This document shows positions 8,197-64,000 of a stretch of DNA of 64,000 nt, one piece after another. Within the stretch, counting starts at the first letter, position 1; every line of letters starts with the position of its first letter. Both the position numbers and the translations under genes were made by a program. The DNA comes from an uncultured Candidatus Saccharibacteria bacterium. GTDB taxonomy: Bacteria > Patescibacteriota > Doudnabacteria > UBA920. Location of the stretch: NCBI GenBank assembly GCA_964556325.1, contig CAZKVS010000004.1, positions 2,439 to 66,438 on the forward strand, written 5' to 3'. The notes below the pieces were generated by a model, which was not told the origin of the DNA, ran no database searches, and saw nothing but the letters and a program-made list of their open reading frames with translations.

Positions 8197-8499
8197 CTAA
8201 ATAGCCCTGTCTGCATACGGATTCGCTTCGAGTCGTTCAGGAGGTATGTCCGCACCATCATCCCCCACCCCATACGTACCAGCATCAATTTTTTGCAAGG
8301 CAGTTTCAATTTTCAATAAATCCGCTTTAATAAGAGCAATAACATCCTGATTTGCTTCGTCTAGGGGCAACTCACCTGCAGCGTCCTCACCTTCCCCCAA
8401 TTCTGTATGAGGCGCGACGCCAGCCACCTCTTCCTGCAGTCTCTTTTGATCTGCAAGCAGTCGTTGTCGCATTTGTTCAATAAATTCTTGTGTAAGCAT
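8197..8499 (-). CDS. DksA/TraR-like protein lacking the Cys4 zinc finger
   Basis: 100 aa, acidic coiled coil plus C-terminal GTYGVGDDGADIPPERLEANPYA resembling the DksA C-terminus without cysteines. Confidence 0.4.
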   Translation of the reverse strand: MLTQEFIEQMRQRLLADQKRLQEEVAGVAPHTELGEGEDAAGELPLDEANQDVIALIKADLLKIETALQKIDAGTYGVGDDGADIPPERLEANPYADRAI

Positions 8500-9306
8500 A
8501 TATGTAGTATATCATATTGATTTCTTTTTTCTCGCATAGAGTCAAGTTTAATTCACTTCATGCAAGAAAAAACCACAAAAAAAACGAACCTAGATATGAC
8601 AAAAGGCCCCTGCAAGGGAACCACGTTAAATAAAGTGTTCCGCAGAGGCCTATAGCCCCTAAAGCTTGAATCACTTTACGCGCGGTATTAAACTACTAAG
8701 CATTTGGTAGCTTAACACCGTGCGTAAGGCAATATTTTCGTCACTTTGAGGTTTTCTCAACTGTAAACAGATGAGATAGCGTCTGACATTCAAGTCTGTG
8801 CCAAACTGGACCTTAAGCTCCTCTTCTGGTGGGCTTCCACCTAAAATAAATTGTTCTTTTGATTTTTTGATTTTTGTTTGATGTGTTCACCTAAAATTTT
8901 GTTAGGAAAACTAGAACCTACATTTTTGTTTTTATTTTGTACAATCAGCTCGGACTTGACGAGCTATGACGAAGAGCTAAAGGAGAACTGAGCATAATGA
9001 GTAGAATAAAGAATTTGGAATAATGAATTTTGAAAAATTCTTTATTTATAATTCTGAATTCTAATTTTCGCGCAGGTTTCCTTCTTCCAATCTTATCCCT
9101 TATGTTGGGATTGGCACGTATTGATTTGTTAATGTGCTATTTAACTTACATAGTAATTGTAATTTTTAGCATCATTTATGTCAATGCAATGGTGTGTATA
9201 GAGTCTTATTTGCGCATATATCTAAGGAGAATACTTTTGAAAAAATTAAAATATCACTTCATCCACATTTTATGGTATGCAATCCACATGTGGATAAGTA
9301 GGCTAC

Positions 9307-11553
9307 TTATATCAATTTATCTTGCTCCACGCTCAACAGGCGCTCGCACACCTGCGCTTCAGCTTCTAACAACGCCATAGATACTTCAAACTTCTGTGCA
9401 GTTTTCCCGAAAGGTCGAAGGCTTTGTACAAACCCCAAAGCTTGAAACGTTAAATTCGCCTCATCAACCGAGTTAAAAAACTTCTGCGCCAATGCAACAG
9501 TAAACGGATGACTCATATCAGTATTAGGTAAACCCACATATACGACACGTTTTGCATCTAGCTTCAAAGCATTAAAACCAGCAAGAGCCGCATGCGCAAT
9601 CAAAACTATTGATTTAGTGCTAAAAGCAAAATTGCGCAATACCTTATTGACACCTCCATGAACCCCAACTGCTATAATAGCCTGCTTTTGCGAGAAGCGA
9701 GCATAGTACGCATCGTAATACGCCTTTAGCGTACGCTGGTCGGGAAATACATAATACGCTAATTCACCCGTCATTGATTGCAATAACGCTGCACCCCTCT
9801 CAGCTTCGCTGGTATACACCGCCACTGTGGGATTCACCACAAGCGGAGTACTTATGGAAGCCATTAAAACAGGAGGGGTCGTACCCATGGAAACCCTTTC
9901 AGCTATATACCTCAAACACTGCCCACTTCGCACATCGGTTGTGTACACGATCTTGCGAGCACCACGCAATATATTCTGCTGAGTGAGCGCAAGGTTGAGT
10001 GGTCGACTAATAAATACACACCGACCGTCACCAATTTCTATCCACCTCAATTCATCTATTGGGGTTTCTCTCTGAAAAAACGTTTCAACGTTCTGCACTA
10101 TTCTTGTAAAATTTTTATCGCTTGCGAGAGCGGAGAGTCTTCCGAGGCGCTGTGCGTAGTTGTTGCCAGCCTGTATAAGCTGATTTTCTACAAAAGGACT
10201 TACATCTGCCTGAGCAACTATGCCCTGCGCTACACCATGGTGTTTTTTGAGCAATAACAACACAGACGCGTAAAACAGATCTGTAGCCACTACCGCCTCT
10301 TGCAACTCTATTGCCTTACTCACATCTCCAAAGCCCGTTTCCGGATTATAAATTTGACGCAATTGATGGATAATACCCTGCCAACTCAACATGTGCCCAC
10401 TTTGCTGCTCAACCCATTGGATGTACTTATCAGTTTCACAGATCCATATGGATTTACCTGGAGGGATGCCTGCAATGCTTCTGTAATCTACGACTACTAC
10501 TCCTGCAGCTTGCGGAAAAGGACGGACTTCAGAAAAGCGCTTCTTAAAATCTACCCCAAGCAAAGACCAATTAATTTCAGCCAGCAAGGGCGTAGCCGTA
10601 GTCTGATTTGCTTGCCAAACAAGGATTTTTAGTAACGCCAGCACCTCACGTTCATGCAAAGCACCCACCGATGACTCCGCCTGCTCAATCGCTTGGCTAG
10701 AAACTGCTTCAGCAATACCTAAAAATGGAGTAGCGTAACCCTTTTTTGCCACCTCCAGCACTTGTTCCCTACTGGAGAGTGCCACTACCCAAGCCTCGCG
10801 ATCATCAGCAAGCGCTTTCCAAGGCACCTCAAACGCATTATGAACCGAAAACACAGATGACGCGGTTTCAAAAATAGGCAATGTCTCCTCGGAAATACCT
10901 ATATGTCCGACTTCTTCGAGTTGCGTGAACACTACACCGTCTAATTGCTCCGCATAGGTATCGGTGAAAAAAATTGCCCACGCATACCCTCGTTGTTGCG
11001 CAATTTTCGCCACTCGCGTTCGAGTGCCTTCTGCCAAAGACCAAAATATAGCCACTAACGCACGTAAAACCCCCACCGTAGCTTGTGCATCGGACAACGC
11101 CCGATGAGCGGAACCATGATGAATGGCCAGAGCGTGCGAAAGATTCTCTAAATTATAACTATGGTACGTAGGTAAGAAAATCTGGGCCAACTCCAACGTA
11201 TCGAGTACACCAACTTTCACTTCAACCCCAAAACCTTCCAAAAATCGCTTGTCCAAACCAACCCCGTGCCCCACAAGCATTGTTCCACGCAATAAAGCCT
11301 GAACCTCAGGAAGTACTTGTTCTTTTGAAGGGGCGGACTGTAAATCGAATTCTGTAATTCCAGTCAGACCTTGAATACGAGCATGTAAAGTAGCTTTCGG
11401 TTTAATGAGGCTATCCCACTCCTTAAGAACTACCATCTTACCCGACTGTATCTCAAACAAAACAATACCAATTTCAACAACCTCATCCACTAGAGGATCA
11501 AAACCGGTGAGCTCTAAGTCCACGCTAGCATATAAGGTTTTTTCTTGTTTCAT
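9307..11553 (-). CDS. DEDDh 3'-5' exonuclease (DnaQ/epsilon-like) domain fused to about 550-aa uncharacterised C-terminal region
   Basis: N-terminus: YASVDLELTGFDP..EVVEIGIV (Exo I), HGVGLDKRFL (Exo II), HRALSDAQAT (Exo III). No Walker A found downstream, so a DinG-like helicase call is not supported. Confidence 0.6.
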   Translation of the reverse strand: MKQEKTLYASVDLELTGFDPLVDEVVEIGIVLFEIQSGKMVVLKEWDSLIKPKATLHARIQGLTGITEFDLQSAPSKEQVLPEVQALLRGTMLVGHGVGLDKRFLEGFGVEVKVGVLDTLELAQIFLPTYHSYNLENLSHALAIHHGSAHRALSDAQATVGVLRALVAIFWSLAEGTRTRVAKIAQQRGYAWAIFFTDTYAEQLDGVVFTQLEEVGHIGISEETLPIFETASSVFSVHNAFEVPWKALADDREAWVVALSSREQVLEVAKKGYATPFLGIAEAVSSQAIEQAESSVGALHEREVLALLKILVWQANQTTATPLLAEINWSLLGVDFKKRFSEVRPFPQAAGVVVVDYRSIAGIPPGKSIWICETDKYIQWVEQQSGHMLSWQGIIHQLRQIYNPETGFGDVSKAIELQEAVVATDLFYASVLLLLKKHHGVAQGIVAQADVSPFVENQLIQAGNNYAQRLGRLSALASDKNFTRIVQNVETFFQRETPIDELRWIEIGDGRCVFISRPLNLALTQQNILRGARKIVYTTDVRSGQCLRYIAERVSMGTTPPVLMASISTPLVVNPTVAVYTSEAERGAALLQSMTGELAYYVFPDQRTLKAYYDAYYARFSQKQAIIAVGVHGGVNKVLRNFAFSTKSIVLIAHAALAGFNALKLDAKRVVYVGLPNTDMSHPFTVALAQKFFNSVDEANLTFQALGFVQSLRPFGKTAQKFEVSMALLEAEAQVCERLLSVEQDKLI

Positions 11554-11636
11554 ATACAGTATTGTACCGGTACTCCCATTAACCTGGCAAACTAAAGCAC
11601 TCTCCTAATGGAGAGTGCTTAAAAAAGACAAAAATG

Positions 11637-12704
11637 CTATTCAACGTCTGCAGACTCAGGAACCAATGCGACCCCATTCTTCGCCTGCTCTCGAACCGCC
11701 GCTACCACCTTTTGCAACACGGTAGGATTTTCTTTTAAGAAGTTTTTGGCGTTCTCTCGACCAACGCCAAGTTTTACGTCTTCGAATAGATATGTATTAC
11801 CATTTTTCTGTAAAGCGCCTAACAGCACTCCCGTATCCAGCGCGTCACCGGCGGTAGAGATTCCCCAATTACCAGGCTGATACATAACGTCAAATTCAGC
11901 GACTTTAAAGGGCGCCGCGACTTTGTTTTTAACGACTTTTACTTTTACCCTATTTCCTACCACAACCTCACCACTTTTAATCTGCGCTATCCTTCTTACA
12001 TCCATTCTAATAGACGCATAAAATTTGAGCGCATTTCCACCAGTCGTCGTTTCTGGATTCCCAAACATCACCCCAATTTTCATACGTATTTGGTTTATAA
12101 ATATGACAGTGGTTTTAGATTTGGAAATAATACCCGTAAGTTTCCGCAACGCCTGACTCATAAGCCTCGCTTGCAAGCCCATATGGCTATCACCCATCTC
12201 TCCTTCAATTTCTGCCCGGGGGGTCAGGGCAGCTACAGAATCCACCACTATCAAATCCACTGCGCTACTTCTCACTAACGTTTCAACGATATCAAGCGCT
12301 TGCTCTCCCGAGTCAGGTTGGGATACAAGCAAATCGTTTACATTTACTCCTAAATTACGGGCAAACTCCGGATCAAGAGCATGCTCCGCGTCTATAAAAG
12401 CAGCTAAACCACCTTCCTTTTGCGCTTCTGCAATCATATGCAACGTTAAAGTAGTTTTCCCAGAACTTTCAGGACCATACACCTCAATAATCCTCCCGCG
12501 GGGAATTCCACCCACCCCAAGGGCCAAATCCAAACTAATACTCCCCGTTGGATAGCTTTCTACATTTAACGCTCGGGAATCTGAGAGCTTCATAATACTC
12601 CCTTCACCAAACTTATCTCGAATTTGATCAAGGGCACTTTCTACAGCTTTTACCCGGCCACCCGCAGGAGCGGAGCCCACTTTGGGTTTAGTTGCTTTAG
12701 GCAT
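11637..12704 (-). CDS. recA: Recombinase A
   Basis: [27 protein letters not shown]...[32 protein letters not shown]. Confidence 0.95.
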
Positions 12705-43358: not shown

Positions 43359-43435
43359 TGGTGGGCGTGCATGGACTCGAACCATGGACCCTCAAGGTAT
43401 AAGCTTGATGCTCTAACCAGCTGAGCTACACGCCC
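43359..43435 (-). tRNA. tRNA-Ile(TAT) (UAU anticodon; AUA-decoding tRNA-Ile2 type), CCA encoded
   Basis: Acceptor GGGCGTG/CACGCCC, D-arm GCTC-AGCTGGTTA-GAGC, anticodon stem TCAAG/CTTGA fully paired, loop CUUAUAC, T-arm CATGG-TTCGAGT-CCATG. Confidence 0.7.
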
Positions 43436-54527: not shown

Positions 54528-54938
54528 TTGTATAATGGTTGTATGCAAAAAAGGCAATTCAAAATTACCATATTCACAGGCACTCTCACGCTCTCACTCG
54601 TAGCGTGCATTGCCTTGTCTCAAATTCAGCCAGCTCTGCAAGCCTTTACGGAAACCTACTCAGTACCAACCGGTATAGTTGCGGGCATTGCTGTAGGAGG
54701 AACCATTGAGCCAACACCCACCAATACGCTCTACGCTGAATTACAGCAGCAACAGATTGCGTTGGATAAAAAAAATGCAGAACTCGAAGCTGAACGTAGA
54801 TATTTAGAACAAAGTAAAACTACAAAAAACACTATTCTCTATATACTCATAATTCTGCTCGGTATATTGGTTGTGGTTAATTTTTATTTTGATATTAAAC
54901 GATACCGCTCCAGTTTTAAGCAAGAACTGCACACATGA
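54528..54938 (+). CDS. Bitopic membrane protein with coiled coil (hypothetical), first gene of the surface island
   Basis: N-terminal signal-anchor, coiled coil (LYAELQQQQIALDKKNAELEAERRYLEQ), C-terminal TM. Confidence 0.45.
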   Translation: MYNGCMQKRQFKITIFTGTLTLSLVACIALSQIQPALQAFTETYSVPTGIVAGIAVGGTIEPTPTNTLYAELQQQQIALDKKNAELEAERRYLEQSKTTKNTILYILIILLGILVVVNFYFDIKRYRSSFKQELHT

Positions 54939-56446
54939 GGTCTATAACAAGTGTATTAGTATTGTTTCTACTTTTCTGCGTAGCAACAACAGCTCTAGCG
55001 GGAACACTAACCAATCGAAGTGACACGTTAGGAACGTCCGCTATTGGTGTCGAGTCAAGCCACCGAATTACCTTTAAACCAAGTTCAACCATTCCTAGTT
55101 CGGGCACTATAACTATAACTCCAACTCCGAGCTTATTTAGTGTTCACCCCCGACTCGACTATCGTGATGTAGACATTCTCGTAAATGGAGTAGAACAACA
55201 CACCGCCCCTACTCCGGGCTCTGGAAATGGAAGCGCCCTTGGCGTCGTAGCCACCGGAGGAAGCAATGGCAGCATTGTCCTCACACTCAACGACACAGAC
55301 ACCATAATCTCTGGTAGTACGGTAGACATTCTCGTTGGTTCTATTGCCGTCTACGAAGCAGCTGGCCTTTTTGGTATTACCAACCCTAACACAATTGGTA
55401 GCTATCCTATTACCATAGAGACGGCCACGGCCTCCAATACACCCCTCGATACAAGCGTTATCGGAGTAGTAACCACAATCCCCGTAGGAATAACTGGCAC
55501 GTTTAATGGCAATGTTGTGGCCAATCCCACCTTTAGCCCGAACCCCGGCACATATGCAAACAGTATTGCAGTAACCCTGTCTACGACCACCCCTGGAGCC
55601 ACGTTGTATTACACAACCGATGGTAGCACTCCGACCGCAGGAAGCGCAGTATACTCCGGCGCGCTTACTATAAACCAAAGTACTGTAATACAAGCCCTTG
55701 CAACCGCCCCAGGTTACGCAGATAGCGCCGTAAGTAGTGCCACGTACATTATCACCACCACTGGCGGTAGTGGCGGAGGCGGAGGCGGAGGCAGCGGCCC
55801 CGTTGTTATCCCCCCCTTCACCCCACAAGCTGGGGAAACTATTATAGACGGCGGGGTTGGAGGACTCGCCTATGGGGGTTGTAGTAATGGAAGCACTATT
55901 ACTCTCACCATACCAGCCGGAGCTTGGAATGGCGCAGGATATGTTGCCCTCTCCTGTCTCCCCTATAGCACTTTTGAGAATAAAAATGGCGCTGCAAGTG
56001 GCGATGCTATAGCAGATACTATATTTGGAATATCGGTTACGGACAGCAATCACAGGCCTATTTATACAAGCCAGTCTCCCATAGCAGCTGTAATCACATA
56101 TACCCAGGGACAGTATCTCGGATTTTCAGACCCTTTCACCACCCAACAATTCAACAACTCTCGCTGGAACGAGCTTACATATATTCAAAATCAAAATACT
56201 CCCACGGTATTCAGTGCAGCCTTTACTACTATTGGTTCACTTGCCGTAATCGGATCGGCCAAAAACCAAAACTGTTCAGACAGAAAAGCGGATTTAAATT
56301 GCGATATGCATGTAGACTTAGTCGACTTTAGCATTCTCCTCTATTGGTGGAACAGTAAACAATCGGGTATACGAGCAGATATTAACAAAGATGGTATAGT
56401 AAATTTAATTGACTTTAGCATTCTCCTCTATTGGTGGACAGGCTAA
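54935..56446 (+). CDS. Secreted dockerin-containing protein (CHB_HEX_C-like Ig domain, Gly-rich linker, C-terminal type-I dockerin)
   Basis: Signal peptide; FSPNPGTYANSIAVTLSTTTPGATLYYTTDGSTP (chitobiase/hexosaminidase C-terminal-like); GGSGGGGGGGSG linker; two dockerin Ca-binding repeats ADLNCDMHVDLVDFSILLYWW / ADINKDGIVNLIDFSILLYWW. Confidence 0.75.
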   Translation: MRSITSVLVLFLLFCVATTALAGTLTNRSDTLGTSAIGVESSHRITFKPSSTIPSSGTITITPTPSLFSVHPRLDYRDVDILVNGVEQHTAPTPGSGNGSALGVVATGGSNGSIVLTLNDTDTIISGSTVDILVGSIAVYEAAGLFGITNPNTIGSYPITIETATASNTPLDTSVIGVVTTIPVGITGTFNGNVVANPTFSPNPGTYANSIAVTLSTTTPGATLYYTTDGSTPTAGSAVYSGALTINQSTVIQALATAPGYADSAVSSATYIITTTGGSGGGGGGGSGPVVIPPFTPQAGETIIDGGVGGLAYGGCSNGSTITLTIPAGAWNGAGYVALSCLPYSTFENKNGAASGDAIADTIFGISVTDSNHRPIYTSQSPIAAVITYTQGQYLGFSDPFTTQQFNNSRWNELTYIQNQNTPTVFSAAFTTIGSLAVIGSAKNQNCSDRKADLNCDMHVDLVDFSILLYWWNSKQSGIRADINKDGIVNLIDFSILLYWWTG

Positions 56447-56455
56447 GCCCTACAC

Positions 56456-57410
56456 TATGCGTATACGAACTATTTCAATCAGCATACTTGTGGCGAGTGG
56501 CATCGCACTAGTAAGCCCGACGCACGGAGCCCGTGCCGCAAATACAGACTTGCATATCTCCGGACCAAAAAGCGTAGCCCTAGGCCAAACTTTTTCTGTT
56601 CGACTCATCATGAGCAGTGCCAGCTCAATTAATGCAATGAGCGGAAACGTGCAATATTCTGGCGAGCTCTTAGGCGTTCAAGGAGTCAGCTACAATAGGT
56701 CCATATTCAAACTCTGGCAACAAACTCCTAATAACAGCCCCCAAACAAACCAGGTAGTATTTGCAGGCGGACTCCCCAACCCAGGCTTTAGTGGTGAAAA
56801 CGGAGAAATTATTCAAATAACCTTTAAAGCTCGAGCGCTCGGCACTGCGACGGTGCAGCTACTCAACAACTCACAGGTGCTTCTCAACGATGGACAAGGG
56901 AGCAGAGCAGAATGGTCAGCTACTCCCTACACGGTTCAAATAAACAAACCAGAAACAGAGCCTACTCCACCACCCGCCGAGCCCTCCCCAGTCGCGAAAG
57001 ACACGACACCACCCACCAATCTTGAACTCTTGATTGGCCACGATAGCCATTTATTTGAAGGTAATTGGTTTGCAGTATTTCGCGCTGAAGACTTGGAAAG
57101 CGGCATAGATCATTACGAACTGGCCGAGGTAGACAATAGCCAAACCTATCCTGTCGACACCGACTGGAGAAAAGTAACCAGTCCATACCAACTCTTAAAG
57201 CAGGAGCAAGGCACTAAAGTATTCTTAAAAGCTGTTGATAAGTCAGGCAACATAAGTACAATCAGCAGAGAGCATAAGCCCACACTCATATCCTTCCCTA
57301 GACCAGACTGGCGTCTCTTGCTCATATTAGCGGTCATACTTGCTCTAGGACTTATCCTGCCTATCTTTGTCTACCATAGAAAAAAACTAGAGGCCTCTGT
57401 ACAAAAGTAG
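56456..57410 (+). CDS. Membrane-anchored cohesin-like domain protein
   Basis: Signal peptide; cohesin-like beta-sandwich signature (GQTFSVRLIM.S...NAMSGNVQYSGELLGVQGV......NQVVFAGG...SGENGEIIQITFKARALGTATVQL); Pro/Thr linker; second beta domain; C-terminal TM + HRKK stop-transfer. Confidence 0.55.
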
Positions 57411-57474
57411 TTTTTTCTGCTACAATATATTTAAACCTGACTCAACTCAAGAAATAAAGATTAAATAAAAAAGC

Positions 57475-58605
57475 ATGAAGTTCCTCCAGAGGGTAAGAAA
57501 AGTTAGTTACAGAAATCTTATAAGCAAATTTGTTATTGGCACCTTAGTACTCAGTGGTATTCTCATTGCCCCACACCATGCCGATGCTGCTCAGGTCACT
57601 TCATTTTCTGACACGTTGACCAGGCTTAAGGCAAGCACCAACGCTAACCACGAAATATTTTTTGTGTCCCCAACAGGCATAGCCTCAACCGGCAACATGA
57701 CGCTTACCTTTACTGGTTTCTCTAACGCAACTGTGAACGCCATACTTTTTAGCGATGTTGACTTTGCTACTGGCAGCACCGCTGTTTGTACAAGCGCTGT
57801 TTACACTGAGCAAACTCTGGTTGCCTCTGGCGCCACCTCTGCCCAATGGAATGTGGCCACCGCCAGCCAAGTTATGACCATTACTTCCGGAGGTGCTTCA
57901 GCCACATTGACGGCTAACAAATGTGTTCGCATACGTATTGGAACCAACGCGACCAACCAAACAACTGGTGTAAACCAAATCCAAAACAATACGGCCGGCA
58001 CAGCTACTATCGCTGTCGGTGGTGGATTTGGAGACACTGGCACTATCGCTATACCTATTATCTCAAACGACCAGGTTACCATAAGCGCTACTGTAGACCC
58101 AACTATAACATTCTCTATTTCGCAAACCACAGTAAGCTTTGGCTCCCTTTCTGCTGCCACTGGTCGCTGGGCCACAAACGCCGGTGGCGCAAACGCCTCC
58201 GCAGCCACCGACCCTACAGCAGCCAACACCGCACATACCCTGACTGTTGGGACCAATGCAAGCAGTGGGTATACAGTCACATATAACGGCGCCCTTCTCA
58301 CAAGCGGCGCAAACACTATAGCAGCTGCTACTATCACTGGGGACAGCGATGGAACTGTAAACTCCAACCAATTTGCACTCTGCGGAAAAGGCACTTCTGG
58401 TAGCCCAACAGTTGCCTCTGGATATGTTTGTGGTACCAACAGCGACTATAACTTTGTAGCCGGCACAACAACAACGCTCGCGAGCGCAACTGCCCCCGCC
58501 AGCAGCGATGTGGTAAGCGTCGCCTATCTTGCCAACATTGCCAGCTCAAAACCGGCTGGTACATACACAACCACCCTCACTTACGTTGCCACGGGAAACT
58601 TTTAA
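57475..58605 (+). CDS. Thr/Ala/Gly-rich secreted surface protein with WxL-like C-terminal motif (AGTYTTTLTYVATGNF)
   Basis: Signal peptide (..IAPHHADA); beta-rich low-complexity; C-terminal AG-Y-x3-TLT(W/Y) resembles the WxL domain second motif of Firmicutes WxL proteins. Confidence 0.55.
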   Translation: MKFLQRVRKVSYRNLISKFVIGTLVLSGILIAPHHADAAQVTSFSDTLTRLKASTNANHEIFFVSPTGIASTGNMTLTFTGFSNATVNAILFSDVDFATGSTAVCTSAVYTEQTLVASGATSAQWNVATASQVMTITSGGASATLTANKCVRIRIGTNATNQTTGVNQIQNNTAGTATIAVGGGFGDTGTIAIPIISNDQVTISATVDPTITFSISQTTVSFGSLSAATGRWATNAGGANASAATDPTAANTAHTLTVGTNASSGYTVTYNGALLTSGANTIAAATITGDSDGTVNSNQFALCGKGTSGSPTVASGYVCGTNSDYNFVAGTTTTLASATAPASSDVVSVAYLANIASSKPAGTYTTTLTYVATGNF

Positions 58606-58620
58606 CCACTTTTAATAACC

Positions 58621-59625
58621 GTGTCAAAAACACACTCATTTTATAAAATTTTTACTATCAGCAGCCTTTTGCTGATAGTTTTTATTACACTCCCCAGCAC
58701 CGCTACTGCAACTACCATGTCACCGGTGCGCCTAGAACTCACAGCAAACCCGGGTGAAACTGTACAAACATCGGTCAAAGTCATAAACGAAACCCAAAAC
58801 TCTCAGGTACTGTACACAGCAACGCTAAACTTCGAACCAAAAGGAGATGAAAGCGGAGAGCCCAACTTTATATCCACCAAAGACGGACTCGCTGCATGGA
58901 CCAAAGCACCGAACTCCATTACACTAGGCCCAAAAGAACAAAAAACTATACCAGTCAGCATACAAATCCCCGCCGACACCGAACCAGGGGGGTACTTTGG
59001 TGCAGTATTTACCTCCAGCACCCCACCCAAAGAGAACGGGAGTGGAAGTGTAATGTTAACGGAACGCGTAGGCAGTCTTATATTGCTACGGGTCAATGGC
59101 GACCTAGCCGATTCCGGGGATATTCTTGAATTTAACACCAAAGACAAGTCCTACTGGCACACCTATTTGCCGATTAATTTATTCTACCGCTTTCAAAATA
59201 GCGGCCTAGACCGTGTCAGACCCCTGGGGGATGTGCTTATAAAAAACTGGTTTGGTAGAACTACCAAAATATTTGAAGCAAACCCAGAAGGCGGCAACGT
59301 ACTGCCAAAGAGTATTCGTCGGTTTAATATCAGCTGGAATAATGCTGATACGCAGGACGATCCAGCAGCGCTGAGCGGTTTCTGGAGCAAAGTACGTTAC
59401 CAAATACAGCACTTCGCCCTTGGCCCTTACACAATTCAGCTCAACTTAGCCTACGGGACAGGCTCATTGCACGCCGCAACTGCATCGGTAAAAGTTTTTA
59501 TGTTCCCCTGGCAGCTTGTGTTGGTAAGCACCATTAGCATTCTGCTGGCGTTCTTTATATCCCGTTTCTGTATTCGTCGTTACAACCGCTGGATAATAGG
59601 CAAAGCATCCAAAGCAAAAAGATAG
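58621..59625 (+). CDS. DUF916/DUF3324-like cell-surface protein with C-terminal TM anchor
   Basis: MSPVRLELTANPGETVQTSVKVINETQNS...EPGGYFGAVF resembles DUF916 N-terminus of WxL-locus (csc-type) proteins; C-terminal TM (LVLVSTISILLAFFI) + RRYNR. Confidence 0.55.
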   Translation: MSKTHSFYKIFTISSLLLIVFITLPSTATATTMSPVRLELTANPGETVQTSVKVINETQNSQVLYTATLNFEPKGDESGEPNFISTKDGLAAWTKAPNSITLGPKEQKTIPVSIQIPADTEPGGYFGAVFTSSTPPKENGSGSVMLTERVGSLILLRVNGDLADSGDILEFNTKDKSYWHTYLPINLFYRFQNSGLDRVRPLGDVLIKNWFGRTTKIFEANPEGGNVLPKSIRRFNISWNNADTQDDPAALSGFWSKVRYQIQHFALGPYTIQLNLAYGTGSLHAATASVKVFMFPWQLVLVSTISILLAFFISRFCIRRYNRWIIGKASKAKR

Positions 59626-59648
59626 ACCTTCTCACATATACCCCACAA

Positions 59649-59676
59649 TCAACGTGGGGTATTTTTTACATCCATG
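59649..59676 (+). terminator. Terminator accccac-aatcaac-gtggggt + T tract
   Basis: After 58621..59625. Confidence 0.55.
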
Positions 59677-59690
59677 ATAAAATTAACTAT

Positions 59691-60788
59691 ATGCGAAGCT
59701 TGAAGAAATTATTTTTATACATAAGTGTAGCGCTTGTAAGCGTCCTACCTTTTCCCACTCTTGCGGAAACGCTTTCGAGTTCAAATTATTCCGTAGAAAA
59801 TCCCTCTGTGGACGTGGGCGGCCAGCTCTCCAACTCAACCAACTATACTTCCCGCGACTCTATCGGAGGCAGCAACGACTCAGCCGCCACTTCTACAAAC
59901 TACAAAATATTCCCTGGGTTTATGCAGCACGCCTACCCTGGCGTCCCCGCTCAACCAACGCTTACAAACACCGGTGGCGTGCTCTATAACGCATTAGATT
60001 TTATTATGGCCACAGGAGCAGGCCAACAAACAGATACTGTCTATGCTATAGCTATTTCCAGCGACAGCTTTACCACTACTAACTTTATACAGGCAGACGA
60101 CACCGTAGGTAGCACTGCCGTATGGCAAAGCTATATTTCCTGGGGTTCAGGCACGGGACAACGCGTAACTGGCTTAGTTCCCAACACAACCTATCAAATA
60201 AAAGTAAAAGCCCGCTATGCAGCAGACACTGAGACCGCTTATTCTCTAACTGCAAGCGCAACAACAGGCGGCCCCACACTCACCGTATCATTCAGTGGAG
60301 TAAACTCGGGCACAGTTGTCGCCGGAGCCACAACGACAGTAACCAGCGCGGCCAACTCCATAACCTATGGATCGCTCACACCGAGCGTGACCGCTGTTGC
60401 AGCCCAGACAATTACCGTAAGCACCAATGCCACAGGCGGTTATACCACCACACTGCAACAAGACGGCAATCTTCGAAACAATAACGGCGATGCTATTAGC
60501 GCCACCACCGGATCCAACGCTTCCCCTGCGGCTTGGCCAACCGGCATTACCGCGGGCTATTTTGGCTATCATACAACCGATAGCAGCCTCTGCACTGGTA
60601 CCACCAGCCGTTTTTCCAGTAACAATACCTACGCTGCCGCAACTACGACACCTGCTGAAATTGCCTGCTCAACAACTACGGCAGCCAACGAGCAAACTTC
60701 TATCGTATACAAAGTCGAGGTGGGCACCTTACAAGATGCGGGAACCTACCAAAATATAATTACCTATATTACTACAGCTCAGTTCTAA
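59691..60788 (+). CDS. Thr/Ala-rich secreted surface protein, paralog with WxL-like C-terminus (AGTYQNIITYITTAQF)
   Basis: Signal peptide (..FPTLA); same architecture and C-terminal motif as 57475..58605. Confidence 0.55.
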   Translation: MRSLKKLFLYISVALVSVLPFPTLAETLSSSNYSVENPSVDVGGQLSNSTNYTSRDSIGGSNDSAATSTNYKIFPGFMQHAYPGVPAQPTLTNTGGVLYNALDFIMATGAGQQTDTVYAIAISSDSFTTTNFIQADDTVGSTAVWQSYISWGSGTGQRVTGLVPNTTYQIKVKARYAADTETAYSLTASATTGGPTLTVSFSGVNSGTVVAGATTTVTSAANSITYGSLTPSVTAVAAQTITVSTNATGGYTTTLQQDGNLRNNNGDAISATTGSNASPAAWPTGITAGYFGYHTTDSSLCTGTTSRFSSNNTYAAATTTPAEIACSTTTAANEQTSIVYKVEVGTLQDAGTYQNIITYITTAQF

Positions 60789-60791
60789 AAT

Positions 60792-61751
60792 ATGCGCATT
60801 CATCGCCTACAACACATTCTAGCGCTTGGATTCTTGGTTATGGCCCTCTTGGGCCTTGCCCACAAAAAAACTAATGCCCAGGAGCAAGAATTAATCGTGC
60901 AAGGCGTCCGAGTTTCGCCGTTTATCTTTGAACAAAGCTTAGAAAAAGGTCATTCTTTTAAAGGCGAAGTTACGCTCAGCAACACGACCAACTCCCCTAT
61001 AACCTTAGCCCTGGCAATACAAGATTTTATTCCCGCGGGAAGACATGGAGAGGTGCGTTTTTTACCTACCAACGAGCAGTCAGATGTTCACTTTTCACTC
61101 ACCGATTGGGTACAAATCACAACTCAGCCGAACTACACTCTCGCTCCTGGAGCTACCACCAAAACCGGCTTTACGGTAACAGCGCCTGTGGACGCCGACG
61201 ACAGCACACACTACGGAGGAATTGTGTTTTCGTTCAATAATGGTAAAACAGAAAATGGAACGGCAGTCATTCAAAGCGTGGGCGCCCTCCTCATTGTAAA
61301 AATTGGCCACTCAAATGGCCAAGGCACTATCCAAAGCTTTACCACCCCAAAACACCTCTATACAAACAGCTACGTCCCCTTCACTGTAGATTTTAATAAT
61401 ACGGGCAATACCCACTTGAGCCCAAAAGGTAAAATTGAAATATACAATGCTTTCAAAAAGCTTGTAGGCGTGGCATATATAAACAAAGATGCTCAAATTA
61501 GCCTCCCAAACACCGTCCGACAATTTGACAGCGACTACCAAGGCGGCTTTATGCTGGGTAAATACACAGCCAGCTTAACTATGTATTTCGGCAACCCCAA
61601 GCTAGAAGCTCGAAGCGTAGTGCAGTTTTGGGTCATACCGTGGAAGCCAATAATTAAAGCAATAAGCCTGACCATTCTCTGTGTTGCACTGCTCACTCTG
61701 GCTATTATCCGCTATAATACTTGGGTCATTAAAAAAGCTCGAAAAAAATGA
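60792..61751 (+). CDS. DUF916/DUF3324-like cell-surface protein, TM-anchored (paralog)
   Basis: VRVSPFIFEQSLEKGHSFKGEVTLSNTTNSPITLALAIQDF...HYGGIVFSF; C-terminal TM (ISLTILCVALLTLAII) + RYNTW. Confidence 0.5.
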   Translation: MRIHRLQHILALGFLVMALLGLAHKKTNAQEQELIVQGVRVSPFIFEQSLEKGHSFKGEVTLSNTTNSPITLALAIQDFIPAGRHGEVRFLPTNEQSDVHFSLTDWVQITTQPNYTLAPGATTKTGFTVTAPVDADDSTHYGGIVFSFNNGKTENGTAVIQSVGALLIVKIGHSNGQGTIQSFTTPKHLYTNSYVPFTVDFNNTGNTHLSPKGKIEIYNAFKKLVGVAYINKDAQISLPNTVRQFDSDYQGGFMLGKYTASLTMYFGNPKLEARSVVQFWVIPWKPIIKAISLTILCVALLTLAIIRYNTWVIKKARKK

Positions 61752-62722
61752 AGTCTCTAAATAAAATATGTACCCTTCTCGGACTCGGGCTACTTTGCGC
61801 AATAGTACCACTACAGGCCCAGGCCTTAACTGCGTCCCCGATTAAAGTTGAACTCAACACAGACCCCGGTAAAACTACTACCTCCCAGTTCAAGCTATAT
61901 AACGAGGGCAAAACTACCGAAACATTTTATATTCTCGCCCAAAACTTTGAAGCAAAAGGTGAGGACGGCACACCAACACTAGTGTCGGGCACTGACGGTC
62001 TTGCGGGCTGGATAGAACCAATAAATTCGGTTACGATCGGGCCAAAAGAATATAAAACCATACCACTTGCCATAACAGTGCCAAAATCCGCGGAGCCAGG
62101 AGGCTACTTTGCCGCCATACTTTCTTCTACAGTACCACCCGTAAGCAAGGGCAACCAAAACGTGCTCTTAGAAGGCCAAGTAGGGACCCTAGTTCTTTTA
62201 CAGGTAAATGGAGACTTTCAACAAGGGGCGCACATTTTAGAGTTTGGCACTAGCTCAAAGTCTAGCTGGTTTACTTCGCTCCCCGTTGAGTTCTATTATC
62301 GCTTTCAAAACGCCGGGGCAAGTTACGAAAAGCCCATCGGAGACCTGCAAATTAAAAATATTTTCGGCGGTACAACCAAAACCATCCCCACCAACTCCGA
62401 TCGGGGCAACGTGCTCCCCAAAAGTATCAGAAGATTTACTACTACGTGGTTTGGCGCCGAAGAAAACGGCAAATTCCCTAAGGGCTTTTTTAACCAGGTC
62501 AGATACGAATGGAATAACTTCGCACTGGGAAGATATACCGCCAATCTAAACTTGATTTACGGTAATAGTACGGACCAAACCGCCTTTGCTCACACCGCAG
62601 TCTGGATCTTCCCTTGGCAGCTTATACTGACCGTACTTGTCACCGCTATAGTAGTATTTGGCTTATCTATAAGCATTGCAGCCCTCATAATTTTACGTAT
62701 ACTAAAAAAGCGGCGTAAATAA
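61748..62722 (+). CDS. DUF916/DUF3324-like cell-surface protein, TM-anchored (paralog of 58621..59625)
   Basis: LTASPIKVELNTDPGKTTTSQFKLYNEGKTTE...EPGGYFAAILSS; about 45% identity by eye to 58621 product; C-terminal TM + KKRRK. Confidence 0.55.
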   Translation: MKSLNKICTLLGLGLLCAIVPLQAQALTASPIKVELNTDPGKTTTSQFKLYNEGKTTETFYILAQNFEAKGEDGTPTLVSGTDGLAGWIEPINSVTIGPKEYKTIPLAITVPKSAEPGGYFAAILSSTVPPVSKGNQNVLLEGQVGTLVLLQVNGDFQQGAHILEFGTSSKSSWFTSLPVEFYYRFQNAGASYEKPIGDLQIKNIFGGTTKTIPTNSDRGNVLPKSIRRFTTTWFGAEENGKFPKGFFNQVRYEWNNFALGRYTANLNLIYGNSTDQTAFAHTAVWIFPWQLILTVLVTAIVVFGLSISIAALIILRILKKRRK

Positions 62723-62743
62723 AGGCATAATTACAAAAACGAT

Positions 62744-62768
62744 AAAAGAGCTCACCATGAGCTCTTTT
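62744..62768 (+). terminator. Terminator aaaagagctcaccatgagctctttt
   Basis: After last DUF916-like gene. Confidence 0.6.
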
Positions 62769-63074
62769 AATTTTAAACAACATATAAAAGCCGCATATTT
62801 AAGCCAAGCCAACTTTGATATAGCACTCCTCCAGGAATACCCATAACCTACCAAAACAACTTAAAATCAATCTTATTTAAGCGCTTTATATCTATTGACT
62901 TTAGCAAAAATATGTGCTAAAATACTTATATGTTTTGTTAGGTTATGTGAGCAAAATATCTTACTATTACCTACCAAAAATCTTAGGTCGAAACAAAAAA
63001 CTCAACAAAAATTAAAAAACTCTTATATAAGCGGTATTCATTCTATACCGGCCAAAATAAGACAAAAAAATAAA

Positions 63075-63275
63075 ATGCCACAAAATCAAATGCCTGAGCT
63101 TCTTACACTCAAAGAAGCATGTGAGTTACTACGCGTACATGCAAATACCCTACGAAACTGGGAACGCGACGGTAAACTCCAAACTATTCGTATTGGTGCC
63201 CGCCGAGATCGACGCTTTACCAAAGCAAGTCTTGAGCAGTTTTTCCAAACGAGCAACCAAGTTATAGCCGCCTAA
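63075..63275 (+). CDS. Excisionase/Xis-family (MerR-superfamily) HTH DNA-binding protein
   Basis: 66 aa from Met 63075: ELLTLKEACELLRVHANTLRNWERDGKLQTIRIGARRDRRFTKASLEQFF matches the helix_turn_helix_17 / excisionase pattern. Confidence 0.55.
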   Translation: MPQNQMPELLTLKEACELLRVHANTLRNWERDGKLQTIRIGARRDRRFTKASLEQFFQTSNQVIAA

Positions 63276-63434: not shown

Positions 63435-64000
63435 GTGTACCCACCCAAACTGAAATTTAAATTTACTTTTCGGAAGCATACTAAGTCGTATGCTCTTTTG
63501 GCGTTAATCGCCACTGCACTCAGCTGGGTACCCATCAATACAAACGTCGCGCAAGCAACTGTGCCAAAATATGTAAACTTCCAAGGCAAACTTACAAAAG
63601 TTTCCGACGGCACCAACGTTACCAATGGTAGCTATGCTTTTGAATTTAAATTATACGACGCCAGCACAAGCGGGACTTTACTTTGGACAGAAACCTACGA
63701 CCAACCAAGTGGCGCATGTACCAAACTTGTGGTAACGAGCGGCGTCTTCAATGCCAAGCTTGGATCCTGTGCCTCCTTGTCTGGCATAGATTTTACTGGG
63801 GGTTCCATATACCTCAGCGTAAACTTTGCTCCAACAGGCGTAAGCTACGATGGTGAAATGTCACCTCGGAAGCAACTCGTTGCCGCACCCTTTGCCCTGG
63901 TCGCCAACAGCGTATCCGGCGACGGACCCGTTAATACGGTAAACTCTTCTGCTACGGCCTTAACCGTAGCCAAGTCCGGAAGTAACTATGGCCTCCAAGT
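63435..64000 (+). CDS. Secreted protein, partial (runs off window end); start codon uncertain (GTG 63435 or TTG 63498)
   Basis: Open frame with signal-peptide-like N-terminus (KSYALLALIATALSWVPINTNVAQA) and beta-rich Thr/Ser/Gly composition; no ATG start, hence absent from the ORF track. Confidence 0.3.
   Translation, partial: MYPPKLKFKFTFRKHTKSYALLALIATALSWVPINTNVAQATVPKYVNFQGKLTKVSDGTNVTNGSYAFEFKLYDASTSGTLLWTETYDQPSGACTKLVVTSGVFNAKLGSCASLSGIDFTGGSIYLSVNFAPTGVSYDGEMSPRKQLVAAPFALVANSVSGDGPVNTVNSSATALTVAKSGSNYGLQ

Follow-up and report, generated by a model that had tools for sequence, protein, structure and literature searches.

Pam pili, donor-strand-exchange filaments of CPR bacteria, have been described in Candidatus Mycosynbacter amalyticus, whose system comprises the pilins PamA and PamB, the chaperones PamC and PamD, and PamT, PamE and PamR (bioRxiv 10.64898/2026.03.03.709456). 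According to cryo-EM, the pilin linker is the donated strand; the chaperones carry C-terminal transmembrane (TM) helices, and the terminator model of PamR is an AlphaFold prediction only (same preprint). The Pam models in NCBIfam are NF058579 and NF058581. The WxL/csc loci of Firmicutes consist of WxL proteins and WxLIP (DUF916-DUF3324-TM), a strand of which is predicted by AF2 to complete the beta-sandwich of its partner (PMC10599100; PDB 9i1y, 9i25); these clusters mix small and large proteins sharing one C-terminal domain, lack a cohesin-dockerin pair, and their WxL proteins are, by description, surface proteins bound to peptidoglycan and not filaments.

The window analysed here, a stretch of 64,000 nucleotides, contains a locus of nine genes (g1 to g9, Table 1). 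The first-pass annotation had listed nine genes and called eight of them co-directional; all nine ORFs exist and, because all were found on the plus strand, the co-directional count is nine. Its idea that a CPR genome here encodes a surface apparatus of secreted and anchored proteins is supported, whereas the proposed match to WxL/csc loci is not, the locus being, very probably, a Pam-type pilus operon instead. The best explanation overall is such an operon with a dockerin-cohesin pair as terminator and anchor of the pilus (probability about 0.6); for the terminator/anchor role taken separately, the balance is tipped slightly in favour. As in the Pam system, the pilin runs from an N-terminal beta-sandwich through a linker to a C-terminal domain that passes the Pam_pilin_C model, and has paired cysteines; each chaperone is built of two Ig-like domains and a TM helix at its C-terminus; a giant tail-fibre-like gene adjoins, and the hosts are CPR bacteria. 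The differences are (i) a pilin-N-domain-dockerin protein and a TM-anchored cohesin in place of a single-chain PamR-like terminator (PamR being compared by its description); (ii) only a partial PamT match, with an FN3 insert, in g6; (iii) three chaperones; and (iv) relatives that are not mainly Saccharimonadia or Microgenomatia, but MAGs labelled Doudna-, Falkow-, Nomura-, Gracili- and Peregrinibacteria. Pam pili themselves being already described, the new elements are the dockerin-cohesin module, the make-up of g2, the donor motif in a second operon type (type A) and TM-ended substitutes for the dockerin protein; the preprint makes no mention of dockerin or cohesin proteins of this type (bioRxiv 10.64898/2026.03.03.709456).

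Table 1. Features of the locus, with positions in the window, strand and basis of the assignment.
Feature	Position	Strand	Basis
g1-g8 and g9, ORFs	54528-63275 region	+	ORF listing
g1, small membrane protein, 136 aa	54528..54938	+	hydropathy
g2, proposed terminator/base subunit, 503 aa	54935..56446	+	Pfam, hhalign, jackhmmer
g2 dockerin module, residues 452-503, two Ca-loop/helix repeats	56288..56443	+	Pfam
g3, membrane-anchored cohesin protein, 317 aa	56457..57410	+	Pfam, NCBIfam, hydropathy
Promoter-like site TGTACA-17-TACAAT with TG, upstream of g4	57398..57426	+	consensus match only
g4, major Pam-type pilin, 376 aa	57475..58605	+	NCBIfam, AF2
g4 donor-strand motif VTISATV, residues 201-207	58075..58095	+	motif count
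g5, membrane-anchored pilus chaperone, 334 aa	58621..59625	+	AF2, Foldseek, Pfam
g6, second pilin-family protein, 365 aa	59691..60788	+	NCBIfam, blastp, jackhmmer
g7, membrane-anchored chaperone, 319 aa	60792..61751	+	Pfam
g8, third membrane-anchored chaperone, 324 aa	61748..62722	+	identity to g5
Palindromic terminator-like hairpin, 12-bp, after g8	62743..62769	.	scan
g9, HTH_17/excisionase-family DNA-binding protein, 66 aa	63075..63275	+	Pfam, NCBIfam
5' end of giant secreted 'tail-fibre-like' gene, runs off window, approximate start	63450..64000	+	open frame with signal peptide

The pilin g4 is composed of a signal peptide, an N-terminal beta-sandwich (residues ~40-196), a donor/linker strand plus a pilin domain at the C-terminus (211-376), with two Cys pairs. 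It passes CPR_Pam_pilin_C (NCBIfam) at 3.8e-15 (56.3 bits, cut-off 55), and the Pam_pilin_C model matches 92 of 117 family members (best E 2e-45). In the AF2 monomer model (pLDDT 90.7), a low-confidence linker (199-205) connects two beta domains. The donor motif, which this linker carries, follows the pattern [VIL]x[VIL][STEQN]A[TQILNSE][VI], which occurs in 73/81 full pilins and 35/41 type-A dockerin proteins, against a background of 29 in 2117 other ORFs (1.4%). The second protein, g6, combines a PamT-like N-terminus (11-81; 2.4e-8 in NCBIfam, confined to the N-terminus and far under the cut-off) with an FN3-like insert (~85-195) and a pilin C-domain (221-365; Pam_pilin_C 1.3e-3); the version in L028, of 258 aa, lacks the insert. 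The C-domains of g6 and g4 are similar in blastp (8e-5), and jackhmmer runs from both converge on one common set. Judged by sequence, g4 and g6 are both Pam pilins, g6 being a candidate tip or minor pilin. The Thr-richness (~18% in both) and AGTY-type ends (AGTY..TLTY / AGTY..IITY) noted at first pass are real, but the WxL identity attached to them has to be rejected: at E<=1, the WxL model (PF13731) matched neither g4 nor g6, nor a single one of 115 relatives.

A signal peptide and a TM helix at the C-terminus are present in each of g5, g7 and g8. Identity is 46% between g5 and g8 and about 24% between g7 and either of them. The AF2 monomer model of g5 (pLDDT 86.7) shows two Ig-like domains followed by the TM helix, and a Foldseek search with it returned WxLIP (9i1y/9i25) as top PDB matches (E 1e-11), with the chaperone-usher chaperones CfaA, CsuC, Caf1M and DraB further down the same list. 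In Pfam, g7 is the paralogue nearest DUF916/WxLIP (WxLIP_PGBD 1e-6, 29.2 bits, cut-off 27.3), g5 remaining under the cut-off (2.7e-4, 21.4 bits). At family level, 54 of 120 chaperones match WxLIP_PGBD, and the top PDB match of the family profile is an E. faecium WxLIP (9i25_C, EfmWxLIP1, 6e-4). Of the earlier description as three TM-anchored, DUF916/DUF3324-like paralogues, the paralogy, the TM anchors and DUF916 thus stand, but DUF3324 (PF11797) does not, being absent from the three proteins at E<=1 and from the 120 family members at E<=0.01. These proteins are the membrane-anchored chaperones of the Pam system, related to Firmicute WxLIP by sequence and fold and to chaperone-usher chaperones by fold; we propose them as fold-mates of PapD, CfaA and CsuC. 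The pilin-chaperone order seen in g4-g5 is kept in about 80 loci and the g6-g7 pair in about 30, and a third chaperone of the g8 type occurs in about 15 related loci. Unlike chaperone-usher pili (Pap/Fim, CFA/I, Csu, Caf1), the system has no usher and no outer membrane, its chaperones are membrane-tethered, and an internal linker serves as donor strand, which in the dockerin proteins is located at the N-terminus; where those pili end by a PapH-type subunit, a groove-less subunit is proposed here.

The kinship to WxLIP also bears on a rather unlikely alternative, a static surface complex of the WxL/csc type without a filament, in which strand complementation, the mode proposed for enterococcal WxLIP-WxL, would keep the Thr-rich proteins permanently bound to the TM-anchored DUF916-like proteins at the cell surface, and a further adhesin would be presented through the cohesin-dockerin pair. 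It draws on the chaperones' homology to WxLIP, which is also their best structural match, on the AF2 models in which a WxLIP strand completes the WxL sandwich (PMC10599100), and on a similar set of parts: C-domain-only proteins, large proteins with that C-terminal end, and a TM-anchored protein of two Ig-like domains. The homology to WxLIP lies in its N-domain; no WxL domain and no DUF3324 Pfam match is present here, and an LPXTG protein was not found at the locus.

Behind its signal peptide, g2 has a pilin-type N-domain (~23-180), a linker strand (~188-196, PVGITGTF), a CHB_HEX_C domain (202-268; CHB_HEX_C_1 7e-21, Pfam), poly-Gly, an optional middle domain (~295-445) and the dockerin; the pilin C-domain is absent, the dockerin standing in its stead. 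Profile comparison shows homology of this N-domain with that of the pilins (g2-family N-domain against the g4 family, hhalign 99.4%, E 5e-21), and jackhmmer reaches the same 91 ORFs from either. The g2 linker can be aligned with the donor strand of the pilins; its sequence, PVGITGTF, falls outside the strict donor motif. The two C-terminal repeats, DLNCDMHVDLVD..FSILLYWW and DINKDGIVNLID..FSILLYWW, bear out the earlier dockerin call (Dockerin_1 24.5 bits, cut-off 22.9), as does the family, of which 45/46 members match Dockerin_1 (best E 3.6e-11). A minimal orthologue (L059, 298 aa) is reduced to N-domain, linker and dockerin, and a dockerin is always present on N-domain-only proteins. Directly upstream, g1 has a hydrophobic segment at the N-terminus, a middle part resembling a coiled coil and a TM segment at the C-terminus (hydropathy); Pfam and NCBIfam searches gave no significant match, and homologues were found only in the seven loci with a g2-type gene, always immediately before it.

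The adjacent g3 comprises a signal peptide, a cohesin (34-146; 24.5 bits, cut-off 24.1, Pfam), a Pro/Thr linker, an OmpL47-type Ig-like domain (208-269; 6e-4, NCBIfam) and a TM helix (282-310). The cohesin and the TM anchor assigned at first pass are borne out; the start given there, 56456, misses the reading frame by one base. Pfam Cohesin by itself detects just 8/46 family members at E<=0.01. The g3-family profile reaches solved R. flavefaciens scaffoldin cohesins (5aoz 4.6e-5, 5m2o 8e-5), which upholds the cohesin call at family level. All 48 short g3-family members end in a TM helix and lie directly 3' of a dockerin gene; g3 is proposed as receptor of the g2 dockerin. As in cellulosomal and non-cellulosomal cohesin-dockerin pairs, for example with the R. 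flavefaciens scaffoldin cohesins (5aoz, 5m2o), there is a two-repeat Ca-loop dockerin and a cell-anchored beta-sandwich cohesin; unlike there, no glycoside hydrolase cargo is present, the dockerin has as its fusion partner a pilin N-domain, or else a donor strand and Ig domains, a C-terminal TM helix and not SLH or sortase anchors the cohesin, and the pair lies within a pilus operon. No report was found of a cohesin-dockerin pair used to anchor a filament base to the membrane.

Far from being the unusual addition suggested at first, the pair is a conserved module: 48/81 related operons contain a dockerin protein and, next in order, a TM-anchored cohesin. The two genes co-occur and are adjacent in 48/48 cases, always within the operon, immediately behind the chaperone or ahead of the pilin. 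Outside cellulosomes, too, modules of both kinds are widespread, and g2 might accordingly be a glycan-binding adhesin on g3, in an independent non-cellulosomal display module beside the pilus genes. We consider this improbable, even slightly more so than the static complex. In its favour, g2 carries a CHB_HEX_C domain, the Big_6 Ig domains of the type-A dockerin proteins are typical of adhesins, and the pair is missing from many window-type operons; about 28 of them lack both dockerin and cohesin within 10 kb, so that the module is either not universally needed or located elsewhere in those genomes. Against a display module stand the pilin N-domain of g2, a donor motif at the start of the mature chain in 85% of type-A dockerin proteins (right behind the signal peptide and followed by poly-Gly in 35/41), the constant position of the pair inside the operon and, in L053, a TM helix in place of the dockerin. 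The dockerin tail is kept in 48 loci. Two loci without the pair have a donor-motif protein that ends in a TM helix. In L053, such a helix replaces the dockerin in a protein at the same position, whose N-terminus is homologous to type-A dockerin proteins (1e-16), and no cohesin gene is nearby; L028 has a similar protein.

A pilus anchored by the dockerin-cohesin pair could be assembled in the following manner: All products would be exported by Sec. The membrane-tethered g5, g7 and g8 may keep the groove of freshly exported pilins covered until the strand is exchanged, with g5 presumably serving g4 and g7 serving g6. In the shaft, formed by g4, the linker strand VTISATV would fill the open C-domain groove of the preceding subunit, and g6, as second pilin, would probably be located distally. 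With its groove-bearing C-domain replaced by the dockerin, g2 could donate but not accept a strand, and polymerisation would therefore stop at the cell-proximal end. Binding of its dockerin to the cohesin of g3, itself held in the membrane by the C-terminal helix, would then fix the filament, g2 and g3 jointly doing the job assigned to the single PamR in Ca. Mycosynbacter.

At the 3' end, the hairpin reported earlier as a terminator, the AT-rich gap and the Xis-family HTH gene all exist, but the hairpin was scored on the minus strand only, the plus-strand T-run being below the scan's rule; L005 has a strong plus-strand terminator at the equivalent position. The gap beyond the hairpin (349-bp, 29.5% GC) leads to g9 (HTH_17 4.7e-12, Pfam; TIGR01764 7.5e-9), whose most probable start is the ATG at 63075, since homologues have 66-85 aa. 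Homologues of g9 lie downstream of the operon in about 27-30 loci, as does the giant gene, whose N-terminal 183 aa are 50-88% identical in about 27 loci and whose orthologue in L003/L004 has about 2400 aa with a Peptidase_S74 domain. Both genes are conserved parts of the operon and would be members of the same conserved unit, with g9 as its probable regulator. In seven related loci, the cluster occupies the same place adjoining rnpA-yidC, with PBP-PaaX-jag-yidC-yidD-rnpA on one side and the HTH gene on the other; ATP synthase genes were not found among these conserved flanking genes, a further difference from the Pam system of Ca. Mycosynbacter. A horizontally acquired island bounded by an excisionase gene, as hinted at first pass from the AT-rich gap and the HTH gene, is thus very improbable, given that this placement persists in the seven loci although their flanking core proteins have diverged to 36-59% identity (36-92% among the relatives), that the HTH gene is followed by the conserved giant gene, that the composition is not anomalous (GC 0.469 against 0.447 in the remainder of the window), and that no integrase or flanking tRNA was found at the locus. 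Upstream of g4, the promoter-like site has a counterpart in L005, where TGTACA-17-TATTAT with TG likewise precedes the g4 orthologue.

The nine-gene cluster of secreted or anchored proteins described in a first-pass annotation is physically real, as judged from ORF calls, domain matches and hydrophobic segments. Nine plus-strand ORFs, g1–g9, follow one another at a spacing of -4 to 65 bp, and only g9 is set off by a wider gap of 349 bp; all of g1–g8 start with a hydrophobic segment, and g1, g3, g5, g7 and g8 end in a transmembrane (TM) helix. The proposed type-I-like dockerin of g2 (503 aa) is above the Pfam cut-off (Dockerin_1, 24.5 bits vs 22.9), has D/N at the Ca-loop positions in both repeats and is accompanied by a CHB_HEX_C_1 domain (7e-21). 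Likewise, g3 (317 aa) contains the proposed cohesin (24.5 bits vs 24.1) in addition to its TM helix; its ATG is at 56457, the earlier start at 56456 being out of frame. The DUF916 label is appropriate for g7 (WxLIP_PGBD, 29.2 bits vs a cut-off of 27.3) and for 54 of 120 related chaperone-family ORFs (best E 2.4e-12), but g5 (21.4 bits) and g8 (12.7 bits) score below the cut-off; g5 and g8 are 46% identical, and g7 is ~24% identical to either. Two further labels had to be dropped: WxL for the Thr-rich g4 and g6 (no PF13731 match in g4–g8 at E<=1) and DUF3324 for g5, g7 and g8 (no PF11797 match at E<=1, and none among the 120 relatives at E<=0.01).

Features of the pilus locus and its surroundings (window coordinates)
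Feature	Position	Strand	Remark
tRNA-Ile	43359-43435	-	anticodon TAT
g1	54528-54938	+	small double-anchored coiled-coil membrane protein; 4-bp overlap with g2 start
g2	54935-56446	+	dockerin protein, putative terminator
g3	56457-57410	+	TM-anchored cohesin
Promoter-like site	57398-57426		TGTACA, 17 nt, TAnnAT, upstream TG; just before major pilin gene g4
g4	57475-58605	+	pilin
g5	58621-59625	+	chaperone
Terminator-like hairpin	59638-59662	+	9 pairs + T-run; between g5 and g6
g6	59691-60788	+	pilin
g7	60792-61751	+	chaperone
g8	61748-62722	+	chaperone
Promoter-like site	62895-62923		TTGACT-17-TAAAAT; from scan of gap region
g9	63075-63275	+	HTH_17/excisionase family; 66-85-aa downstream neighbour of type-B pilus operons, ~27 loci
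Giant secreted 'tail-fibre-like' gene, 5' end	~63450-64000, running off window	+	open frame, after g9

Cryo-EM of the filaments of Ca. Mycosynbacter amalyticus showed PamA and PamB to be the pilins: in the two-domain Pam pilin, the N-terminal domain is a beta-sandwich, and one linker strand is donated to the next subunit, into the neighbouring subunit's groove (bioRxiv 10.64898/2026.03.03.709456). PamC and PamD are FimC/PapD-like chaperones with an unusual C-terminal TM helix; PamT is a single-domain tip pilin from the same operon; PamR is RbmA-like, begins with a strand, ends in a TM helix and is predicted by AlphaFold to terminate and anchor the pilus. The same preprint describes a 'tail fibre-like protein' as a conserved neighbour of the pam operon, and nowhere mentions WxL, DUF916, cohesin or dockerin.

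In sequence and fold tests, the window locus passes as one of Pam pilins and Pam-type chaperones. g4 matches the NCBIfam model CPR_Pam_pilin_C (NF058581; 3.8e-15, 56.3 bits, curated cut-off 55). The match of g6 to this model is weak (1.3e-3), and its match to PamT (NF058579) is only partial, covering model positions 8-81 (the N-terminal third) with 33.7 bits vs a cut-off of 240; g6 carries an FN3 insert, and its likeness to g4 is confined to the C-terminal 130 residues (E 8e-5). Among 117 pilin-family ORFs of related loci, Pam_pilin_C is matched by 92 (best E 2e-45), PamT by 95 and WxL by none; g4 and g6 are thus ruled out as WxL proteins by their Pam_pilin_C matches and the absence of WxL matches. 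The AF2 model of the g4 monomer (39 sequences, pLDDT 90.7) comprises two beta-rich domains (residues 40-196 and 211-376), and its sole low-confidence segment is the linker between them (199-205), which carries a family-wide motif. Each domain contains one Cys pair, as reported for Pam pilins. One related locus, L028, encodes two minimal pilins (8474-9049 and 9288-9869; 191 and 193 aa) with signal peptide, donor motif and C-domain and without the N-domain, a layout that recalls classical chaperone-usher pilins with their N-terminal extension.

The 'DUF916-like' proteins are Pam-type membrane-tethered chaperones and true, remote relatives of Firmicute WxLIP, because both the fold of g5 and the sequences of its family point there. 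In the AF2 model of g5 (pLDDT 86.7), two beta-sandwich domains precede a long C-terminal helix. Its best PDB matches are the Enterococcus faecium WxLIP structures 9i1y and 9i25 (E 1e-11, TM-score 0.57-0.61), the latter bound to a long WxL protein; the alignment to 9i1y covers both its domains (269 columns). Lower in the list are CfaA, CsuC, Caf1M and DraB, interspersed with RbmA and unrelated two-domain proteins. With the TM helices of g5, g7 and g8, these fold matches describe a PapD/FimC-like chaperone with a C-terminal TM segment. A profile of 120 chaperone sequences retrieves EfmWxLIP1 as the top two PDB sequences (6e-4), whereas searches of PDB sequences with a single chaperone or a g5-only profile gave no match. 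AF2 models of WxL complexes show a hairpin strand of WxLIP filling a gap in the WxL sandwich (PMC10599100); as modelled, this amounts to donor-strand complementation under another name. A literature search found no paper tying WxLIP to pili or chaperones. Compared with WxL/csc clusters, the locus shares only the WxLIP N-domain (PF06030) with C-terminal TM helix: both the WxL domain and DUF3324 are missing, a CscD-type small LPXTG protein is absent, and none of g1–g9 has a C-terminal LPXTG motif, the sole LPxT[GAN] match being LPSTA at g5 residue 24, within the signal peptide.

For comparison, 81 related loci were assembled, 77 from a genome-collection scan with 10-kb flanks and four from contig look-ups (L001–L004); ORFs were called in all of them and searched with g1–g9. 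The g5 family had 348 detected members. Among the MAG labels are Doudna-, Falkow-, Nomura-, Staskawicz-, Magasanik-, Gracili- and Peregrinibacteria; TPA MAG titles such as 'uncultured Gammaproteobacteria' or 'Candidatus Saccharibacteria' (L008, L010, L019, L022 and others) look generic or wrong, so that lineage statements from such titles are unsafe. Two operon types are seen. Type A (~41 loci) starts with a large protein ending in a pilin C-domain (up to 1551 aa); between one and three g4-like pilins come next, then a chaperone, then a dockerin protein of 172-457 aa and a TM-anchored cohesin (~300 aa), with a second cohesin protein usually last. Type B, that of the window, has the order pilin (g4), chaperone (g5), pilin (g6), chaperone (g7) and at times a g8-like chaperone; seven type-B loci have g1, g2 and g3 ahead of this series, which is also the layout of the window. 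The second cohesin-family protein (366-682 aa) follows the TM-anchored one in 32 type-A loci (e.g. L001 12610-14214, L042 12793-14514) and has a C-terminal TM helix in only 11; the window has no such gene. In L071, the N-terminal half of one gene product (10955-11914) is near-identical to the adjacent dockerin protein and the C-terminal half is a chaperone, indicating either recombination or a chimeric assembly.

Pam pilins and TM chaperones being already known, what is new here is the cohesin-dockerin pair within a Pam-type pilus operon. The pair is real and conserved: the same 48 loci hold both genes, adjacent in 48/48 with the dockerin gene first, and the short cohesin proteins, 48 in number, each have a C-terminal TM helix. 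Dockerin_1 is matched by 45 of 46 dockerin-protein family members (best E 3.6e-11). Single cohesin-family members pass Pfam in 8 of 46 cases, and the family profile matches solved cohesins of R. flavefaciens scaffoldin (5aoz, 4.6e-5; 5m2o, 8e-5).

The dockerin proteins are predicted to be chain terminators, on the grounds of a pilin N-domain in g2, a shared donor motif, a TM swap in two loci and the geometry of a donor that lacks a groove. (i) The N-terminal 180 residues of g2 form a pilin N-domain (g2 vs g4 family in hhalign, 99.4%, E 5e-21), and jackhmmer started from either N-domain retrieves the identical 91 ORFs; no N-domain-only protein of the data set lacks a C-terminal dockerin. Since the smallest g2 orthologue (L059, 298 aa) has nothing but the signal peptide, the N-domain, a conserved (P/S/T)VG(I/V)xG strand and a short linker leading to the dockerin, the CHB_HEX_C and middle domains of g2 are optional inserts. 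The g2-type strand aligns with the pilin linker column for column (VGITGTF / VTISATV). (ii) The donor motif [VIL]x[VIL][STEQN]A[TQILNSE][VI] is present in 73 of 81 full pilins and 35 of 41 type-A dockerin proteins, compared with 29 of 2117 other ORFs and one of 80 cohesins. In type-A dockerin proteins it lies right behind the signal peptide and ahead of a poly-Gly spacer, the Ig (Big_6) domains and the dockerin; most of the six without the strict motif have the near-motif LISAQV. (iii) L053 has neither dockerin nor cohesin, and the gene at its dockerin-protein position codes for a TM-ending protein, whose N-terminus (donor motif and Cys-rich module) is homologous to type-A dockerin proteins (1e-16); L028 has a similar protein of signal peptide, donor motif and TM helix. 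(iv) For a strand donor without an acceptor groove, the only possible place would be opposite the acceptor-only tip, at the cell-proximal end. The terminator's dockerin may then plug into the membrane-anchored cohesin, and the pair (g2 and g3 in the window) would replace a single-chain PamR-type anchor.

Because the g2 linker departs from the strict donor motif, and because ~28 type-B loci have neither dockerin nor cohesin within 10 kb, we put the odds that the dockerin proteins end the chain and anchor the pilus via a membrane cohesin only slightly above even. A broader reading joins to this detachable anchor and terminator the proposal that Pam and WxL/WxLIP (csc) form one superfamily, two branches of ancient, usher-less pilus/adhesin systems of monoderm bacteria with membrane-tethered chaperones; its probability as a whole is roughly 0.4. 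In literature searches, no report was found of cohesin-dockerin as a pilus anchor or terminator, and no paper connecting cohesin or dockerin with CPR pili. The small protein g1, present only alongside g2-type dockerin-pilin genes (seven loci), is possibly a further anchor component. One difference from the Pam system is that the window has no single-chain PamR-type protein (PamR being compared by its published description); PamR-like single chains with donor motif and TM helix are those of L053 and L028. Pam pilins form extracellular helical filaments, and the same is predicted for the products of the window locus. In relation to chaperone-usher pili, the system is proposed to work alike but without an usher.

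To our knowledge, no surface filament of CPR episymbionts other than Pam pili and type IV pili has an atomic structure. Pam pili are believed to establish the first contact with the host cell, and for how they are stopped and tethered without outer membrane or usher there was so far only the AlphaFold guess of PamR. For much of the CPR, the window locus and 80 relatives offer a specific answer that can be tested: the proposed terminator is a groove-less subunit that either has a TM helix itself or carries a dockerin plugging into a membrane cohesin. Such a non-covalent, Ca-dependent tether could also account for the easy shedding of Pam pili. Pam-type operons are now seen on contigs bearing the labels of many more CPR lineages, cohesin-dockerin would gain a role beyond polysaccharide degradation, and the little-understood WxL/WxLIP clusters for adhesion in enterococci, listeriae and lactobacilli become tied to pilus chaperone biology; if the superfamily holds true, WxL clusters would also operate by strand complementation or exchange.

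A horizontal origin, hinted at in the first-pass annotation, is rejected because of its gene context and GC content. All seven related loci that have the block PBP-PaaX-jag-yidC-yidD-rnpA carry it immediately ahead (upstream) of g1-g2-g3, at flanking-protein identities from 92% down to 36%; the HTH gene recurs downstream of the operon in ~27 loci, and GC is 0.469 in the locus vs 0.447 in the rest of the window. g9 (66 aa), for which a 126-aa TTG-start ORF is an over-extension, is probably a regulator and not a mobile-element Xis. A relationship of g9 to RwpL, an HTH protein that regulates the WxL genes in L. plantarum, was rejected, RwpL being MarR-type and unrelated. Orthologues of the giant gene in L003 and L004 measure ~2400 aa and contain Peptidase_S74; the first 183 residues of the giant protein are 50-88% identical over ~27 loci and are more conserved than the pilins.

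The AT-rich gap and the hairpin resemble a normal operon boundary that includes a promoter region. The promoter-like element before g4 suggests a separate, strong pilin-chaperone transcript; a matching element precedes the major pilin gene of L005 (8781-8809), whose g5 protein is 69% identical. The g5-g6 hairpin is not conserved in L005, and attenuation is therefore not claimed. An Rfam search of the locus returned no riboswitch or other known RNA at E<=0.1. Elsewhere in the window, the minus-strand tRNA-Ile has an anticodon that is uncommon for this tRNA in bacteria.
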